Positions 13,618 to 20,156 of a stretch of DNA of 64,000 nt are shown here, in pieces (positions within the stretch are counted from its first letter, which is position 1; each line of letters begins with the position of its first letter). A model generated the notes under the pieces. The model made no database searches and was not told the DNA's origin. It saw only the letters and a program-made list of their open reading frames with translations. The position numbers were made by a program, and so were the translations under genes. Source of the stretch: Candidatus Latescibacterota bacterium (GTDB lineage Bacteria; Latescibacterota; UBA2968; UBA8231); contig OZ241889.1 of NCBI GenBank assembly GCA_965203355.1, positions 1,152,001-1,216,000 of the forward strand. The letters are read 5' to 3'.

Positions 13618-14421
13618 ATGGAGGATTTAAAGGCTCTAATGATCGTTTTTGCCGGCTGCGTTATGCACGCCGTCCCCGGGCTGGCGCGGTCGGCTGATGA
13701 TGAGAGCGAGGGATACGTCGGCACTATGGTGGCTGTCATTTTGGGTCAGGACCTGCACCATAAAACGGCTTTTATCACCCCTGATAGTACAGAGTTGACG
13801 GTTTCGAGCCATCTCGTTATTGATTACGGAATTGGGTTTGCGGCCGTTGCGGGAAAAGGCATTTCCGATTACACGGCACTTGAATTTACCGGCTCTTGGG
13901 CGAGGCTGCCATCCCATCTCGACGTTCCCCTTCCCTTGCCGCCCCTGTTTGCCGAAGGGCTCTCCCAAAATGGTTTTGAGCTACCTAGCGGTTTCAACTA
14001 TGACGGGAAAACAGTGATACTACAGTCGAAGGTTGATCTTTTGCTTTTCCCGATAAAGATGGCCACGAGTCCCAGCGATGGCGCGAAGCCTTACTTGGGG
14101 GGAGGCTTGGGAATCGTGCGATCGCACCTAGATTTGGATATTGAAAAGGAGGGGTCGCAGGCCGTTATCGAGGCTTTAGGGGAGTTTGCCGAATTGATTG
14201 CCGAAAATCTCGCCAGACACATTCCCGAAAATCTCGCGGAACTTATTCCCGAAAAGATAGACGAAAAAGAAATCGATTTTCAATTGACCCTGCGCGCAGG
14301 TGTAAACATGCCTTTCAACAACATGGACTTAGATTTGGGATGGCAGTTTTATAGAACGTACGTTAATGGAGAAGACAACAACTCCCATGTGGCGAGCGGC
14401 ATCCTGAAGTACGTTTTTTAA
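13618..14421 (+). CDS. Outer-membrane beta-barrel protein
   Basis: Signal peptide, KPYLGGGLG, terminal LKYVF; internal ENLA repeat. Confidence 0.7.
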   Translation: MEDLKALMIVFAGCVMHAVPGLARSADDESEGYVGTMVAVILGQDLHHKTAFITPDSTELTVSSHLVIDYGIGFAAVAGKGISDYTALEFTGSWARLPSHLDVPLPLPPLFAEGLSQNGFELPSGFNYDGKTVILQSKVDLLLFPIKMATSPSDGAKPYLGGGLGIVRSHLDLDIEKEGSQAVIEALGEFAELIAENLARHIPENLAELIPEKIDEKEIDFQLTLRAGVNMPFNNMDLDLGWQFYRTYVNGEDNNSHVASGILKYVF

Positions 14422-14522
14422 GCGGCTGCGATCTCTGCGCCTTGAAATGATTGAAGTGATGGACGCGCATTGCTCCGAGTGAGAGCTCGGCCTATATTGG
14501 TAACAGTAGCGAGTATATAACT

Positions 14523-14604
14523 TCCGTTGGGGGTGGTCCGATGGCGGGCCTGAGATTGAGACCCTTCGAACCTAAACTGGATCGTGCCAGCCTAGGGAAA
14601 CGGA
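14523..14604 (+). promoter_or_regulatory. Variant or degenerate TPP riboswitch aptamer
   Basis: P1 tccgtt/aacgga, GGGG, CTGAGA, ACCC intact; ACCTAA for ACCTGA and GCCTAGG for GCGTAGG. Confidence 0.85.
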
Positions 14605-14614
14605 TGCCGGACGC

Positions 14615-14646
14615 ACCGCTGGCCCATCTGGGGCGAGCGGTTTTTT
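14615..14646 (+). terminator. Intrinsic terminator of riboswitch copy 1
   Basis: accgctggccc-loop-gggcgagcggt followed by a T run. Confidence 0.75.
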
Positions 14647-14782
14647 ATGCGCCTGCGACGGAGTCATTCCGCAAGGCACCTTTTCTTGCAAACTGGGGCG
14701 ATAAGTGTGTATCATCCGAGCCTTCGTCGCTCCTACCGACGAAGAGGTTGCTTTATATGCCTTAATTAGTGATAGGATTCAG

Positions 14783-15820
14783 ATGATGATAAAAAAGCAA
14801 GCTACCATTAAAGATGTTGCACGGGAGTTGCAGATTTCGCATTCAACCGTCTCACGGGCACTATCTGCGGATCGGAAGGTGTCGGCACTAGTGAAGGAGG
14901 AGACTCGAAAACGGGTGCAGCAAGTAGCCGCCGAGCTTGACTATATTCCCAATTTTATAGCGCAGGGGTTTGTAACGGGGAAGACGGGTACCTTGGGTCT
15001 GCTGACCTATCAGATTTCCCTAGAGATGTTTGGCCGTCAGACTAATCAGATTTTGCAGGAGGCTGATAAGCAGAAGTATCGCATTCTGATGGGCATGGCC
15101 CCTAACCGGTTTCAGGAGTTGCCACTAGAGGATCAAACTTTGCAGATAAAGCAGTTGCTTTCCCGGGGCATAGACGGACTCTTGATTCACACCCGGGGCG
15201 ACCGAGGAGAGGCCGAGCGCATTTTAAGCACCGTGCAGGGACGAATGCCGGTGGTGACTTTTACCGATCCGATTCAAAGTTTGAGTGGAGTCGTGTTGGA
15301 AGAGATAACGAGTTTTTGCGAGGCCACCGAGTATTTGATCCGTCTGGGGCACGAGCGGATCGGGTTTATCGGGACGGACTGGAGTAAGAACCTCGTGGGT
15401 TCAGCCAAGGGCAAGGGGTATATGCTAGCGATGCAAAAGCACGGCTTGACTCCCAAACGCATACCTAGCAAAACCTTTCCCAAAAAACCGACACATCGCT
15501 TAGGGGAAAGGCTGGGCGACCGATTTACAGCTCTTGTGTGCCGAAACGATTACGAGGCCATAATCGCTTGTCACGGACTAAGGGCAGCGGGCTTTCGCGT
15601 CCCCGAGGATGTAGCTGTGGTGGGAAACGGCGATCTGGATTTGGCAGCGTATGTGACACCGGCACTGACGACTTTGGCAATTCCCTACGCGGCGATTGCC
15701 CAGGCGGCGATGGAGTTAATGCTGGAACAGCTTGCAGGGAAGCAGGACGAGCCTCGGCAAGTAGTCTTGAAATCGTCGCTGGTCGTGCGGGAATCTTGTG
15801 GGGCGAACAACAAGAAATAA
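14783..15820 (+). CDS. LacI-family transcriptional regulator
   Basis: TIKDVARELQISHSTVSRAL HTH; GHERIGF, VPEDVAVVG, PALTT, LVVRESC. Confidence 0.93.
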   Translation: MMIKKQATIKDVARELQISHSTVSRALSADRKVSALVKEETRKRVQQVAAELDYIPNFIAQGFVTGKTGTLGLLTYQISLEMFGRQTNQILQEADKQKYRILMGMAPNRFQELPLEDQTLQIKQLLSRGIDGLLIHTRGDRGEAERILSTVQGRMPVVTFTDPIQSLSGVVLEEITSFCEATEYLIRLGHERIGFIGTDWSKNLVGSAKGKGYMLAMQKHGLTPKRIPSKTFPKKPTHRLGERLGDRFTALVCRNDYEAIIACHGLRAAGFRVPEDVAVVGNGDLDLAAYVTPALTTLAIPYAAIAQAAMELMLEQLAGKQDEPRQVVLKSSLVVRESCGANNKK

Positions 15821-15973
15821 GCGGAACACTAACTTGACACGGTAGAGTGAAAGGATAGATTTATCGCTCTAAATGCAAACGTGTGAATATAAGAATATCA
15901 TTCGATTGCTGAGTTGAATATTGATATTGACATGGTGTTACCCTCCGGGGACTTTTTTTAGTACTGAAAGCCG

Positions 15974-16912
15974 ATGAAGCCAGTCAATATGCTTGCAGTA
16001 AATGGTCGGATCCATAAAGGAGTTTTTAGCCAGTTGATAACGCAAGGGATTGTAACAGAGAGGACGGGTACTTTAGGTCTGCTGGCCTGCGAGGTTTTCG
16101 GATCTGTGTTAGGCCGGCAGATCGATCACATTTTGCAGGCAGCGTACAAGCGGAACTATCAGGTCGTGATGGGCCCGATGCATCTGACCCGATTGGACGA
16201 CCAGGCCATACAGGTCGAGGAATTGCTTTCCCAAGGCATAGACGGATTCTTGATTCGGACGCGGGGTGCCAAAGGAGAATTCGCGCACATTTTGCAGACC
16301 ATAAAGAGGCGTGTGCCGGTGGTGACGTTTCACAATCCAACGCAAGTGAGTGGAGTCGTGCTGGACGATACAACGAGTTTTTGCGAGGCCACCGAGCATT
16401 TGATCCGGTTGGGGCACGAGCGGGTTGGGTTTATCGGTGCCGATTGGGACCAGAGCCGCACGGGGTCAGCCAAGGGTAAGGGGTATCTGCTGGCAATGCA
16501 AAAGCACGGATTGATTCCCAAACGCATACCCAGCGAAATCAGCACAGAATCGGGGTATCGCTTGGGCAAAAGACTGGGCGATGGTCTTTTTACGGCCCTT
16601 GTGTGCCGGAACGACTATACGGCGATAGGCGTTTGTCGCGGGCTACAGGAAGCAGGGATTCGCGTACCCGAGGATGTGGCTGTGGTGGGGAGTGGTGCTA
16701 TCGACATGGGGGAATATGTGACACCAGCGCTGACGACCTTGGCGACTCCTTATGAGGCGATTGCCGAGGCGGCAATGGAGTTGATGCTGGAACAGCTTGC
16801 GGGGAGGCTGGATGATCCGCGGCAAATAACCTTGAAATCGCCGCTGGTCGTCCGGGAATCCTGCGGGGCACACCAAAAAAATAATCGCAAGGACGCGCAT
16901 TGCCCCGAGTGA
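15974..16912 (+). CDS. LacI-family paralogue lacking the HTH domain
   Basis: Closely similar to 14783..15820 from QG(F/I)VT onward; no HTH; putative promoter TTGACA-16 bp-TAGATT near 15834-15861. Confidence 0.75.
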   Translation: MKPVNMLAVNGRIHKGVFSQLITQGIVTERTGTLGLLACEVFGSVLGRQIDHILQAAYKRNYQVVMGPMHLTRLDDQAIQVEELLSQGIDGFLIRTRGAKGEFAHILQTIKRRVPVVTFHNPTQVSGVVLDDTTSFCEATEHLIRLGHERVGFIGADWDQSRTGSAKGKGYLLAMQKHGLIPKRIPSEISTESGYRLGKRLGDGLFTALVCRNDYTAIGVCRGLQEAGIRVPEDVAVVGSGAIDMGEYVTPALTTLATPYEAIAEAAMELMLEQLAGRLDDPRQITLKSPLVVRESCGAHQKNNRKDAHCPE

Positions 16913-16949
16913 GGGCGTGTTCTATATTGTAGAGACATTGAATATAGCT

Positions 16950-17031
16950 TCCGTTGGGGGTGGTCCGATAGCGGGCCTGAGATTGAGACCCTTCGAACCT
17001 GAACTGGATCGTGCCAGCGTAGGGAAACGGA
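16950..17031 (+). promoter_or_regulatory. TPP riboswitch (canonical)
   Basis: GGGG...CTGAGA...ACCC...ACCTGAACTGGATCGTGCCAGCGTAGGGAA; upstream of a TonB receptor and thiN. Confidence 0.96.
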
Positions 17032-17052
17032 TGCCGTACGCACCGCGTACGC

Positions 17053-17085
17053 ACCGCTGGCCCTTCTGGGGCGAGCGGTTTTTTT
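17053..17085 (+). terminator. Riboswitch terminator
   Basis: accgctggccc-loop-gggcgagcgg + T7. Confidence 0.8.
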
Positions 17086-17135
17086 GTGCCCTTCGACGGA
17101 GTCATTCCGCAGATGAAAAACGAGGGAGCCTATCC

Positions 17136-19487
17136 ATGAAAATTTCACTATCATCGGTCCGCTTGCTGGCCGGTTTATTGACGCTGTCGGCGTTGTCGCT
17201 GGCGCAGGCCGAGGAAGTGCCCGGCCGAGTGTTGGACGCGGCCACCGGGCATCCTTTGGCCGGGGCCAATGTGCAGGCCGGGAGCGCGGCTACTACTACG
17301 GATGCTCAGGGCCGCTTCAAGGTGGAGGCGGCCTTGGGCGATTCTATTACCATTTCCTACATCGGCTACCAGCGCGTGCGAGTGGCGGTCGTCTCGCCCT
17401 TGGTCGTGGCCTTGGAGCGCGAAATTTTGCCAGCGCCTGAGGTGGTAGTCGAAGGCGGTTTGGTGCGCCAGCGACTCGACCGCTTAGCCGCGAGCGTCAC
17501 GGTGGTAGAGGGGGACCGCTCGCGGACTAGCGGGGCCGGTCACTTGCAAGACGCAACCCATGCCGTGCCCAATTTGAATTGGGCTGGCGGCTCATCGCGG
17601 CCGCGCTATTTCCAGATCCGGGGCATTGGCGAGCGCAGCCATTACGCGGGCGAAGGGCCGCCCAGTTTTTCAGTGGGATTCGTCATGGACGACGTCGATT
17701 TGAGCGGCATGGGCACGGCCGGGTTGCTCTTTGACGTCGATCAGGTCGAAGTTTTCAAAGGCCCTCAGTCGACCATTTTTGGCCCCAACGCCTTGGCCGG
17801 ACTGATTAACTTGCGCTCGGCCGACCCCCAGCCGGAGTTTGCCGGAGCGGGCAGTGCCGAGATGGGCAGCGATGGTTTAGGGCGTTTTTCCGGGGCGGTC
17901 AACCTGCCAGTAGGCGCCGATTTGGCGCTGCGCGTGGGGTACGAGAACGGCCGGGCCAACGGCTTTCGCTCCAACGCTTTTCTCGATGCCGACGATACCA
18001 ATGCCCGGCGCGAGCAGTTGCTGCGCGCCAAGGTCGGCTGGACCCCAGCGGTTGGTCCCGAGGTGTTAGGTACCTTCTTTTGGGCTGATATGGATAACGG
18101 ATACGACGCTTGGGCACCCGACAACAACGAGGATTTGACCACTTACGCTGACAGGCCGGGCAAGGATCGCCAGCAGACGACAGGGGCCTCGCTCAAGAGT
18201 GCTTGGGAGCTAGGGGCGACCGGGGCTGAGTTCGTCGCGATTACCGCATTTTCGCGCAGCAAGTTGGAGCACAGTTTCGACGGCGATTGGGGCAACGACG
18301 AGTACTGGCTGCGTGCGCCGTACGAATTCGACCCAGCAGTCGAGGGGTGGAGTTACGACTTTTTCGACCGCAATGGGCGCGACCGCACGGTGGTGAGCCA
18401 AGAGGCCCGGCTCTTGGTCGAGGAACTGGTGGTAGGGGCCTATTGGAAGCGGCTCGAAGAGGAAGACCAGGCCGAGGGCTATTTGTTCGGCGGCGACGCC
18501 ACCGAGCTGAACGGACGCTACGAAATCGACAACCTCGCTTTTTACGGTCAGTACGGGTTGGCCTTGGGCGAAAAGTTGCGGCTGGAAGTCAATGCGCGGC
18601 TCGACCGCAACGACACGGCCTATGAAGGAACGACCGCGAATGACGGCGCCGATAGCACCAGCACTGCGTTCGCCGTTGATCAATGGTTGGGCGGCGGCAA
18701 AGCGGCCCTCAGTTACACTTGGCGTTTGGGCCATACTTTATACGCTTCGGCCTCGCGTGGCTACCGCTCGGGCGGGGTCAACCAGCATCCGTACTTGGCG
18801 GCGGCGAACCGCCCCTACGACCCCGAGCACATCGTCAATCTCGAACTCGGCTGGCGGCTCAGCGGGCCGCGCTCTTCCATCGGACTGACTCTGTTCCACG
18901 CGCTGCGCTCGGACCAGCAGGTCGAGCTGTCGAGCCAGCAGGATCCGGGCGACCCCAACAGCTTCTTTTACTTTACGGCCAATGCCGGCAAAGGCCGCAA
19001 CAGCGGCTTGGAATGGGAGCATACTGTCCGCCTCTTGCCCCAAGTCGAACTCTTCGGCTCAGTGGGCTTGCTCACTACGCACGTTGATACGTACACCTTC
19101 CCCACGGAAGATGGGGCAGTAACGCTGGGGGACCGGGCCGCCGCCCACGCGCCCAACTACACCTTCAGCGTGGGCGGTGCCTATCGCCATCAGTCGGGTT
19201 TGGGGGCGCGCTTGGTCCTGACCGGCATGGACCAATTCTTCTACTCCGATAGCCACGACCAAGTCTCGGAGCCGTACCAATTGGTCAACGCCCATATTGC
19301 CTACGAGCGGGAAGCGTGGTCTGTGCAGCTATGGGGCCGCAACGTGCTCGACAAGCGCTATGGGGTGCGGGGTTTCTACTTTGGCTTGGAACCGCCGGAT
19401 TATGCTGACAAGCTGTACGAAACCCATGGCGATCCGCGCCAAGTCGGCGTGCGGCTGACGACGCAATTTTCTTCTTTGGGGAACTAA
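17136..19487 (+). CDS. TonB-dependent receptor, probable thiamine uptake
   Basis: Signal peptide, carboxypeptidase-regulatory-like N-domain, FQIRGIG, VEVFKGPQSTIFG, WGRNVLD; under a TPP riboswitch. Confidence 0.9.
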   Translation: MKISLSSVRLLAGLLTLSALSLAQAEEVPGRVLDAATGHPLAGANVQAGSAATTTDAQGRFKVEAALGDSITISYIGYQRVRVAVVSPLVVALEREILPAPEVVVEGGLVRQRLDRLAASVTVVEGDRSRTSGAGHLQDATHAVPNLNWAGGSSRPRYFQIRGIGERSHYAGEGPPSFSVGFVMDDVDLSGMGTAGLLFDVDQVEVFKGPQSTIFGPNALAGLINLRSADPQPEFAGAGSAEMGSDGLGRFSGAVNLPVGADLALRVGYENGRANGFRSNAFLDADDTNARREQLLRAKVGWTPAVGPEVLGTFFWADMDNGYDAWAPDNNEDLTTYADRPGKDRQQTTGASLKSAWELGATGAEFVAITAFSRSKLEHSFDGDWGNDEYWLRAPYEFDPAVEGWSYDFFDRNGRDRTVVSQEARLLVEELVVGAYWKRLEEEDQAEGYLFGGDATELNGRYEIDNLAFYGQYGLALGEKLRLEVNARLDRNDTAYEGTTANDGADSTSTAFAVDQWLGGGKAALSYTWRLGHTLYASASRGYRSGGVNQHPYLAAANRPYDPEHIVNLELGWRLSGPRSSIGLTLFHALRSDQQVELSSQQDPGDPNSFFYFTANAGKGRNSGLEWEHTVRLLPQVELFGSVGLLTTHVDTYTFPTEDGAVTLGDRAAAHAPNYTFSVGGAYRHQSGLGARLVLTGMDQFFYSDSHDQVSEPYQLVNAHIAYEREAWSVQLWGRNVLDKRYGVRGFYFGLEPPDYADKLYETHGDPRQVGVRLTTQFSSLGN

Positions 19488-19490
19488 ACC

Positions 19491-20156
19491 GTGGGCGGTC
19501 GGTCTGCGCTGGTCGTCGGCAATGGCGAGCCACCTTCCCGAGCATTATTCGCTGCCTGCGCGCAAGAAGCCGAGCTGATCTTGTGCGCCGATGGCGGAGC
19601 CAATACCGCCTCGGCGTACGGATACGCGCCCGATTACGTCGTCGGCGACCTCGACTCGGTTAGCCGCCAAAGCAAGGCTGCCCTCGCCGCCGACCGCTTC
19701 ATCCTCGTTGACCCCGAGGGCCATGTAGGCACAGATGGCCAAAAAGTCCTCAACCACGCCGTCGCCTTGGGCGTTACTGAAGCCGTGCTCGTCGGTTTTA
19801 CGGGGCGGCGCACCGATCACTTGTTGGGCAACTTGAGCCTGCTCAAGACATTTGCCGACCGCCTCGCCCTGCGCCTAGTGGACTCCTACTGCGACATCCG
19901 CCTCATTGACCGCCGCATTCGCTTCCGCGCCGTTATGGGTCAGAAAATTTCCCTATGCCCACTTAACGGGGCGGTGGAAGGTATTGAGACGTTTGGCTTA
20001 AAATGGCCCTTGCGGTCTGAGAGCCTCATTCCGGGTGTGCGCGACGGCATCTCCAATGAAGTGGTAGCCAACCCCGTCGAAATTCGCGTCGAGCGCGGCG
20101 ATCTGCTGTTGTGTGTGCAGCGGGAGGGAAGTGCTGGCGAGATTGTGGTGGAGTGA
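19491..20156 (+). CDS. thiN: Thiamine pyrophosphokinase
   Basis: CADGGA, VVGDLDSV, TD, GRRTDH, GLKWPL, GISNE. Confidence 0.92.
   Translation: MGGRSALVVGNGEPPSRALFAACAQEAELILCADGGANTASAYGYAPDYVVGDLDSVSRQSKAALAADRFILVDPEGHVGTDGQKVLNHAVALGVTEAVLVGFTGRRTDHLLGNLSLLKTFADRLALRLVDSYCDIRLIDRRIRFRAVMGQKISLCPLNGAVEGIETFGLKWPLRSESLIPGVRDGISNEVVANPVEIRVERGDLLLCVQREGSAGEIVVE

Follow-up and report, generated by a model that had tools for sequence, protein, structure and literature searches.

A duplicated TPP riboswitch leader in a Latescibacterota genome, with a probably TPP-blind copy upstream of a LacI-family gene

Introduction

Why does a TPP riboswitch stand upstream of a gene for a LacI-family regulator, and why has this copy, and not its near-identical neighbor, changed at two bases of its pyrophosphate pocket? 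These questions are raised by a locus within a 64,000-nt stretch of DNA from a Candidatus Latescibacterota bacterium (contig OZ241889.1), hereafter the window, from whose first letter all positions are counted. A first-pass annotation, made from the letters alone, had described the locus as a duplicated riboswitch that captured a new gene, and had proposed either that loss of TPP sensing was selected or that the aptamer had shifted to another ligand. The comparison with related genomes, public sequencing runs and predicted folds that is described here indicates that the finding is real and that its explanation is likely an ordinary one.

Two copies of one leader

Two TPP riboswitches occur in the window, both detected by cmscan with the Rfam model RF00059 above its gathering score of 54.3 (Table 1). 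They will be referred to as RS_A, the upstream copy, and RS_B, the downstream copy. Each is part of a duplicated leader block of about 213 nt, some 90% alike between the two sites, that comprises a promoter-like site, the TPP aptamer, an expression platform, a terminator and about 30 nt past the terminator. The duplication claimed by the first-pass annotation for 14461–14673 is thus borne out, both by the two above-gathering matches and by the alignment of the block to 16891–17111. The order of genes is enolase-superfamily gene, orf267, RS_A, LacI1, LacI2, RS_B, TonB-dependent receptor and thiamine diphosphokinase. RS_B therefore precedes thiamine-uptake genes, whereas the gene downstream of RS_A is not a thiamine gene but LacI1.

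Over the 82-nt aptamer (14524–14605), exactly three positions, 14543, 14574 and 14592, distinguish RS_A from RS_B, and these are the very mismatches that had been listed (one in the P3 loop, G>A at 14574 and G>C at 14592). At 14543, in the P3 loop, RS_A has G and RS_B has A; the adjacent loop positions 14541 and 14542 are variable among relatives too. At 14574, in the motif ACCUGA, RS_A has A for the G of RS_B (17001), the equivalent of G60A in the thiM aptamer, and at 14592, in GCGUAGG, it has C for the G of RS_B (17019), the equivalent of G78C. The numbers G60 and G78 were put on the ACCUGA and GCGUAGGG motifs according to the thiM sequence. The first-pass annotation had made the same assignment to G60 and G78, and it is consistent with the numbering in those parts of PMC3764141 that deal with the pocket. 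Of the pyrophosphate-sensor bases, then, RS_A keeps the equivalent of C77 (14591), and those of G60 and G78 are gone.

The remainder of the aptamer is well preserved. Helices P1, P2, P3, P4 and P5 surround the three-way junction both in the cmscan alignment and in the minimum-energy fold of RS_A. The pyrimidine-sensor motif CTGAGA (UGAGA of J3-2) and the terminator, both of which had been said to remain, are in place, the former at 14550–14555 and the latter as a hairpin at 14616–14640 followed by six T. Retention of the promoter had also been claimed, and a TTGCTC-17-TATATT site can indeed be seen by eye, with the qualification that it falls under the threshold of the promoter scan; the scan reports the homologous RS_B site (16900–16928) and passes over that of RS_A, which has one match fewer in its −35 element. 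Outside the aptamer, RS_A is without one 11-nt tandem-repeat unit of the platform, at 14609/14610, and has G at 14610 where the other copies have T. More mismatches between RS_A and RS_B lie in the promoter and post-terminator parts of the block. These differences outside the aptamer are absent from the first-pass annotation.

Table 1. Positions of the two leader copies and of the genes and sites around them in the window.
Feature	Position	Strand	Evidence and remarks
orf267, 267 aa	13618–14421		conserved, upstream of RS_A
RS_A leader copy	14461–14673	+	aligns to 16891–17111; orthologs in L009, L010 and L015; 5′ flank like the single leader of L007
RS_A promoter-like site, TTGCTC-17-TATATT	14470–14498	+	by eye; homologous to RS_B site 16900–16928
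RS_A TPP aptamer, pyrophosphate pocket degenerate	14519–14615	+	RF00059, 61.0 bits, E 1.6e-9 (cmscan)
Site of the absent 11-nt repeat unit, with loss of the apical platform hairpin	14609–14610	+	26 of 27 related copies have both units
RS_A intrinsic terminator, hairpin + 6 T	14616–14646 (hairpin 14616–14640, T 14641–14646)	+	fold
LacI1 promoter-like site, TTGCAA-18-TATCAT	14686–14715	+	promoter scan; 3′ of RS_A terminator
LacI1, full-length LacI family with HTH	14783–15820	+	Pfam LacI, Peripla_BP_3
LacI2, paralog without HTH	15974–16912	+	63% identical to LacI1 over 292 aa
RS_B leader, canonical TPP riboswitch	16891–17111	+	aptamer 16946–17042 (RF00059, 68.2 bits, cmscan), hairpin 17036–17050, terminator 17054–17085; fold
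TonB-dependent receptor, RS_B-controlled	17136–19487	+	Pfam Plug, TonB_dep_Rec_b-barrel, CarboxypepD_reg
Thiamine diphosphokinase	19491–20156	+	NCBIfam TIGR01378, 136.9 bits (cut-off 76.4); Pfam TPK domains

Origin of the duplication

The receptor protein, used as a query, located 51 loci in genome contigs, and the close ones (86–91% identity) belong to Latescibacterota MAGs. This close set consists of 22 loci (L001–L021 and L035), for which synteny was established by tblastn. Two LacI genes are present in 14 of them and none in four (L007, L014, L020 and L035), while the rest have one or run into the end of a contig. The four loci without the cassette have the simple order orf267, leader, receptor. 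RS_A itself is present in only 3 of the 22 (L009, L010 and L015), where it lies between orf267 and LacI1. The single leader of L007 has the upstream flank, promoter signature and P3a sequence of the RS_A type, and this likeness identifies RS_A, next to orf267, as the copy that occupies the ancestral position, and RS_B as the one next to the receptor. Doubling of the leader accompanied the insertion of the LacI1–LacI2 cassette and was not a later copying event by which a gene was captured. The earlier account, of a riboswitch that was duplicated and then acquired a new gene downstream, gives way to one in which the cassette entered the leader and left leader sequence on both sides.

Once formed, RS_A was lost more than once. 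In a tree built from receptor–kinase DNA, the loci that hold RS_A are scattered and the window is sister to the cassette-less L007, an arrangement that suggests both losses and recombination. The deletions of RS_A have differing end points and fall into at least four patterns. In the coordinates of the L009 intergenic region, L003 is missing 24–258 (its sister L015 retains RS_A), L021 has only 247 onward, L011 has 215–252, which is the terminator, together with 284–397, its RS_A remnant amounting to 52 nt, and L001 has 50–75.

Conservation of the pocket bases

The three orthologs of RS_A all have G at both pocket positions, possess both repeat units and score 67.3–67.9 bits. In the genomes that carry them, the receptor–kinase locus is the sole TPP riboswitch site. 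All of the ten copies aligned with RS_A of the window have G at 14574, and variation in their aptamers is limited to 14537, 14541, 14542, 14554, 14557 and 14558, all of them in P3 or at otherwise variable sites. A pattern search of 167 genomes of the phylum, in which position 60 could be G or A and position 78 could be G or C, gave 132 matches from 110 of the genomes, and every one of the 132 had G at both. The double change is private to the lineage of the window.

A wider search gave no second case. The first-pass annotation had looked to the same double variant turning up elsewhere, and a pattern for it matched six places in 241 million metagenome records, none of them TPP-like (cmscan at E up to 0.1; two also judged by eye), in addition to being absent from the 132 phylum matches. 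A pattern specific to the promoter and aptamer of RS_A had no matches in metagenome contigs, where there are thus no further RS_A orthologs of that form. Using a similar pattern, a base other than G at position 60 was found in none of 301 Bacteroidota genomes, a sample whose canonical sites are uncounted.

The same bases are described in the literature on the aptamer. In the parts of PMC3764141 that concern the pocket, U59 and A80 in P4, G60 in J4-5, and C77 and G78 in J5-4 are described as highly conserved; G60, C77 and G78 are placed at the metal by which the pyrophosphate is held, and G78 is a direct pyrophosphate contact. In the relevant section of PMC7824784, C77 and G78 are reported to hydrogen-bond the pyrophosphate. 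Since the two guanines replaced in RS_A correspond to highly conserved metal and pyrophosphate contacts, we infer, as seems fair, that normal TPP sensing has been lost in RS_A and that the copy probably no longer binds TPP.

One way in which the first of the changes might have been harmless was considered and set aside. Rfam pairs position 60 with position 79, and G60A could conceivably be a compensated change from a G-U to an A-U pair. Among the 132 phylum matches, however, position 79 takes T, C, A and G, and position 60 is always G, and compensation was therefore rejected as an account of G60A.

As a side observation, four related whole genomes (G001–G004, loci L058–L063) have TPP riboswitch matches only at the receptor–kinase locus. 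This restriction to one locus suggests that the bacteria concerned rely on thiamine salvage.

Strain comparison and rates of change

Contigs from four public runs (X1, X4, X5 and X6) were compared with the window over 14200–15100, and they bear on the concern that the variant might be a sequencing or assembly artefact, for example a mis-assembled repeat. Copies that are about 90% alike do invite such errors, repeats being prone to mis-assembly. Against this, a single contig of X1, the probable source run, covers the whole stretch with zero mismatches to the window, and a 418-nt contig of X4, from another study, is identical to 14382–14799, including both variant bases and the deletion. X4 also yields an RS_B-type contig with G at both positions and the 11-nt unit present. 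The identity of the X4 contig means that the variant is real and present in a second study, and an artefact can be regarded as hardly credible.

Runs X5 and X6, which come from one study, contain a strain that is about 96% identical to the window, with about 3–4% mismatches in the flanks. Its 99-nt unitig over 14521–14619 has G at both 14574 and 14592 and T at 14610. The unitig joins the contigs on the orf267 side and on the LacI2 side and leads to the contig on the LacI1 side, and it is the repeat core common to RS_A and RS_B. No 11-nt insertion is seen at 14610 in the contig on the LacI1 side. Because this strain is without the 11-nt unit and yet has G, G and T, the deletion must predate the split of the two strains, and the point changes came later, in the lineage of the window.

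The same strain provides a measure of rate. Between the window and X5, in a hand count over few sites of assembled contigs, 9 of about 180 third codon positions differ (5%; 3 in orf267 and 6 in LacI1), as compared with about 15 of the 213 positions of the RS_A block (7%; 13 listed and 2, at 14520 and 14543, deduced from contig totals). Within the block, the aptamer differs at 3 of 82 positions and the part outside it at 12 of 131. The RS_B core differs at 0 of 99. When L009, L010 and L015 are used to polarise the changes, all three in the RS_A aptamer are derived in the window lineage, and those of the whole block divide into about 11 on the window branch and 4 on the other. Since its divergence from the X5/X6 strain, RS_A has therefore changed about as fast as silent sites, and the RS_B core is unchanged. 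A near-silent rate beside a frozen core is what would be seen if RS_A changed like unconstrained DNA in the window lineage.

One further feature of the block deserves mention. The sequence GTCATT is common to both window copies (14663–14668 and 17101–17106), where GTTCTT or ATTTTT is found in relatives and position 14665 is T in the X5/X6 strain. This agreement between the two copies is suggestive of gene conversion between them in the window lineage.

The expression platform

The platform of the related copies contains the 11-nt tandem repeat, which forms a hairpin, GUACGC-ACC-GCGUAC, in 26 of 27 of them. In L007 (9876–9890), a compensatory change from A-U to C-G is found in this hairpin, which in the predicted folds appears to cap an antiterminator helix. 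Across the 27 copies, 98.6% of cells pair in the terminator hairpin. For the antiterminator helix, formed by the 3′ strands of P1 and P4, 95.6% of cells are compatible, with one compensatory change only. For ligand-free truncated transcripts of the canonical copies, thermodynamic estimates favor a long antiterminator in which the 3′ strands of P4 and P1 and the repeat hairpin would be stacked on the 5′ strand of the terminator. Pairing of nucleotides 72–78 with the terminator 5′ strand was also considered as the antiterminator and was rejected; it is not the favored alternative fold in canonical copies.

In isolation, the antiterminator of RS_A is predicted to be about 10 kcal/mol weaker than that of RS_B (−11.8 versus −21.7 kcal/mol). 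The predicted balance between antiterminator and aptamer is +1.0 kcal/mol in RS_A versus −2.9 to −4.4 kcal/mol in canonical copies, negative values meaning that the antiterminator is the lower in energy. When the four substitutions of RS_A are reverted in silico to the states of its relatives, the balance returns to −2.9 kcal/mol. The shift would come from 14543 and 14610, and the pocket changes are predicted to be without effect on it. These estimates dispose of an otherwise attractive idea, that the 11-nt deletion crippled the antiterminator, locked the switch off and so freed the aptamer to decay: reversion of the four substitutions restores −2.9 kcal/mol with the deletion still in place, the hairpin contributing equally to both states.

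Fate of the RS_A copy

The explanation that we consider probable, with moderate confidence, is that RS_A is a redundant leader copy that LacI1 can do without, that has lost its constraint in the window lineage and that is by now presumably blind to TPP. The ancestral leader of the thiamine-uptake operon, made up of promoter, riboswitch and terminator, was doubled as the LacI1–LacI2 cassette inserted between leader and receptor. RS_A retained the old upstream flank and came to stand before LacI1, and RS_B retained the old downstream flank and, with it, control of the operon. RS_A would be dispensable because LacI1 has a conserved promoter-like site of its own and most relatives have lost RS_A altogether. 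The LacI1 site at 14686–14715 is kept in the RS_A-less relatives L003, L021 and L011, and on these sequence grounds LacI1 is not dependent on the RS_A promoter. In the window lineage, RS_A would then have passed out of purifying selection and begun to drift, its changes being effectively neutral. Two of these, G60A and G78C, fall in the Mg/pyrophosphate pocket and would most likely abolish TPP binding or greatly weaken it. The product would be a structured leader that no longer senses TPP and still has its terminator intact, and transcripts from its promoter would stop, or read through into LacI1, regardless of thiamine status.

Certain findings speak against drift. Two of the three aptamer substitutions are in the four-base pyrophosphate pocket (G60, A61, C77 and G78); the chance of such clustering is about 0.007 for three random hits in 82 positions, or about 0.04 if the ten-base ligand shell is taken as the target, although both figures are post hoc. 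Changes are sparser in the aptamer (3/82) than elsewhere in the block (12/131), the aptamer score is still above gathering, and the terminator and −10-like element of RS_A are intact. The clustering in particular hints at selection rather than drift. In a selective explanation, TPP control of LacI1–LacI2 would have been a harmful by-product of the insertion, and mutations that blinded RS_A would have been favored as the point-mutation counterpart of the deletions of RS_A seen in relatives. The position of the pocket changes, the repeated deletion of RS_A with differing end points and the occurrence of the variant as the only form in contigs of two studies (X1, the probable source, and X4) would all be in keeping with this. 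Repeated deletion, however, is equally expected of a neutral redundant element. Moreover, the changes are spread across the whole block, including its promoter-like and post-terminator parts, at about silent-site density; intact RS_A persists in three species and in the X5/X6 strain and so is not strongly harmful; and one pocket mutation would have been enough, the second adding nothing. We regard selected inactivation as possible but unlikely. Of the earlier claim that loss of TPP sensing had been selected, the loss remains a reasonable deduction from the conservation of the bases and their pyrophosphate and metal contacts, and the selection is weakened by the near-silent rate of change in the block and by the deletion of RS_A in most relatives.

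It is also conceivable that RS_A is still in use. A TPP riboswitch of weaker affinity could set LacI1 at another TPP threshold than that of the uptake operon, and a match of 61.0 bits with all helices, CTGAGA and C77 kept, together with a terminator and a shortened antiterminator that are both predicted to form, would suit such a retuned switch. Its chances are nevertheless slim, considering that G60 and G78 are invariant in all 132 phylum matches and are described as metal and pyrophosphate contacts in the pertinent part of PMC3764141, that the orthologs and the closest strain have G at both positions, and that position 60 had no base other than G in the 301 Bacteroidota genomes, their canonical sites being uncounted. 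Alternatively, the pocket might have been rebuilt for another ligand, with amino groups in place of both metal-coordinating guanine carbonyls and LacI1 under a new signal; candidates would be thiamine, TMP or an HMP derivative bound without the Mg–pyrophosphate bridge, a different anion or an unrelated ligand. Both changes do turn keto into amino groups at guanines that are placed at the metal site in the sections consulted of PMC3764141 and bioRxiv 10.1101/2025.01.21.634073, and the pyrimidine-sensor half is untouched. Yet there is no independent example, whether among the six metagenome matches (none TPP-like), the 132 in the phylum or the three orthologs; the change is younger than a strain split of about 4%, and LacI1, which lies downstream, is a LacI regulator of a generic kind, present in most relatives with no riboswitch before it. 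The ligand-shifted variant put forward by the first-pass annotation is not supported, the double change being private to the lineage, with G at both positions in the three orthologs, the X5/X6 strain and all 132 phylum matches, and we consider it very improbable.

Relation to known systems and significance

Variant riboswitch classes with altered ligands combine a known fold with substituted ligand-contact bases, and they have many independent representatives and a consistent gene context. RS_A resembles them in having contact-base substitutions within a known fold and differs in being confined to one lineage. As compared with the TPP (THI) element of Rfam RF00059, RS_A shares an above-gathering score, P1–P5, CTGAGA, C77 and a transcription-terminator platform; unlike that element and thiM, it has A and C for the invariant G60 and G78, is without an 11-nt unit of the platform and has a LacI-family gene downstream. 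The nearest experimental parallel is with engineered thiM mutants of the pyrophosphate helix, one of which includes G78U and which are described, in the portion of bioRxiv 10.1101/2025.01.21.634073 that covers them, as having a decreased response to TPP. In both cases, Mg/pyrophosphate positions are changed, and in the mutants TPP modulation is decreased. The engineered changes are at A61, C63, C77 and G78, whereas RS_A has the natural pair G60A and G78C, from which a similar effect would be expected.

The operon controlled by RS_B resembles the thiamine operons of Bacteroidetes (OMthi, pnuT and tnr3) that are outlined in the part of bioRxiv 10.1101/867226 dealing with them, in that a riboswitch precedes an outer-membrane transporter and a kinase. 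It differs in belonging to the phylum Latescibacterota, in that no pnuT-like gene is seen between receptor and kinase in the window, and in having its leader doubled around a LacI cassette.

RS_A and RS_B provide a dated, stepwise and natural case of the birth and death of a riboswitch copy, which arises by insertion of a cassette into a leader, remains whole in certain species, has been deleted from others and in the window bears fresh mutations of its contact bases. The pair would also serve as a natural control for the contribution of G60 and G78 to TPP binding. For annotation, the case counsels caution: an above-gathering match to a covariance model can be ligand-blind, and pocket positions are worth checking before regulation is inferred. 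In relatives with intact RS_A, on the other hand, a TPP riboswitch before a LacI-family regulator may constitute a cascade from riboswitch to transcription factor.

The LacI cassette and neighboring genes

LacI1 scores under every NCBIfam equivalog cut-off. In LacI2, no HTH is detected with Pfam and there is no open frame upstream, the stop-to-stop frame starting only at 15968. The tblastn matches to LacI2 in 14 relatives begin near the same residue, which makes the HTH-less form appear to be conserved beside full-length LacI1. LacI2 may be a partner of LacI1 or an anti-repressor. No family match to orf267 is given by Pfam or NCBIfam; in relatives, this gene sits directly upstream of the TPP leader or of the LacI cassette.

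The leader of LacI1 has features of its own. At 14719, the window is without a 12-nt stretch that is found in relatives and in the X5/X6 strain. Just 3′ of the LacI1 promoter-like site, an 8-bp inverted repeat (14722–14744), which the scan flags as terminator-like, is largely conserved in relatives and is a candidate for a LacI operator or a leader hairpin.
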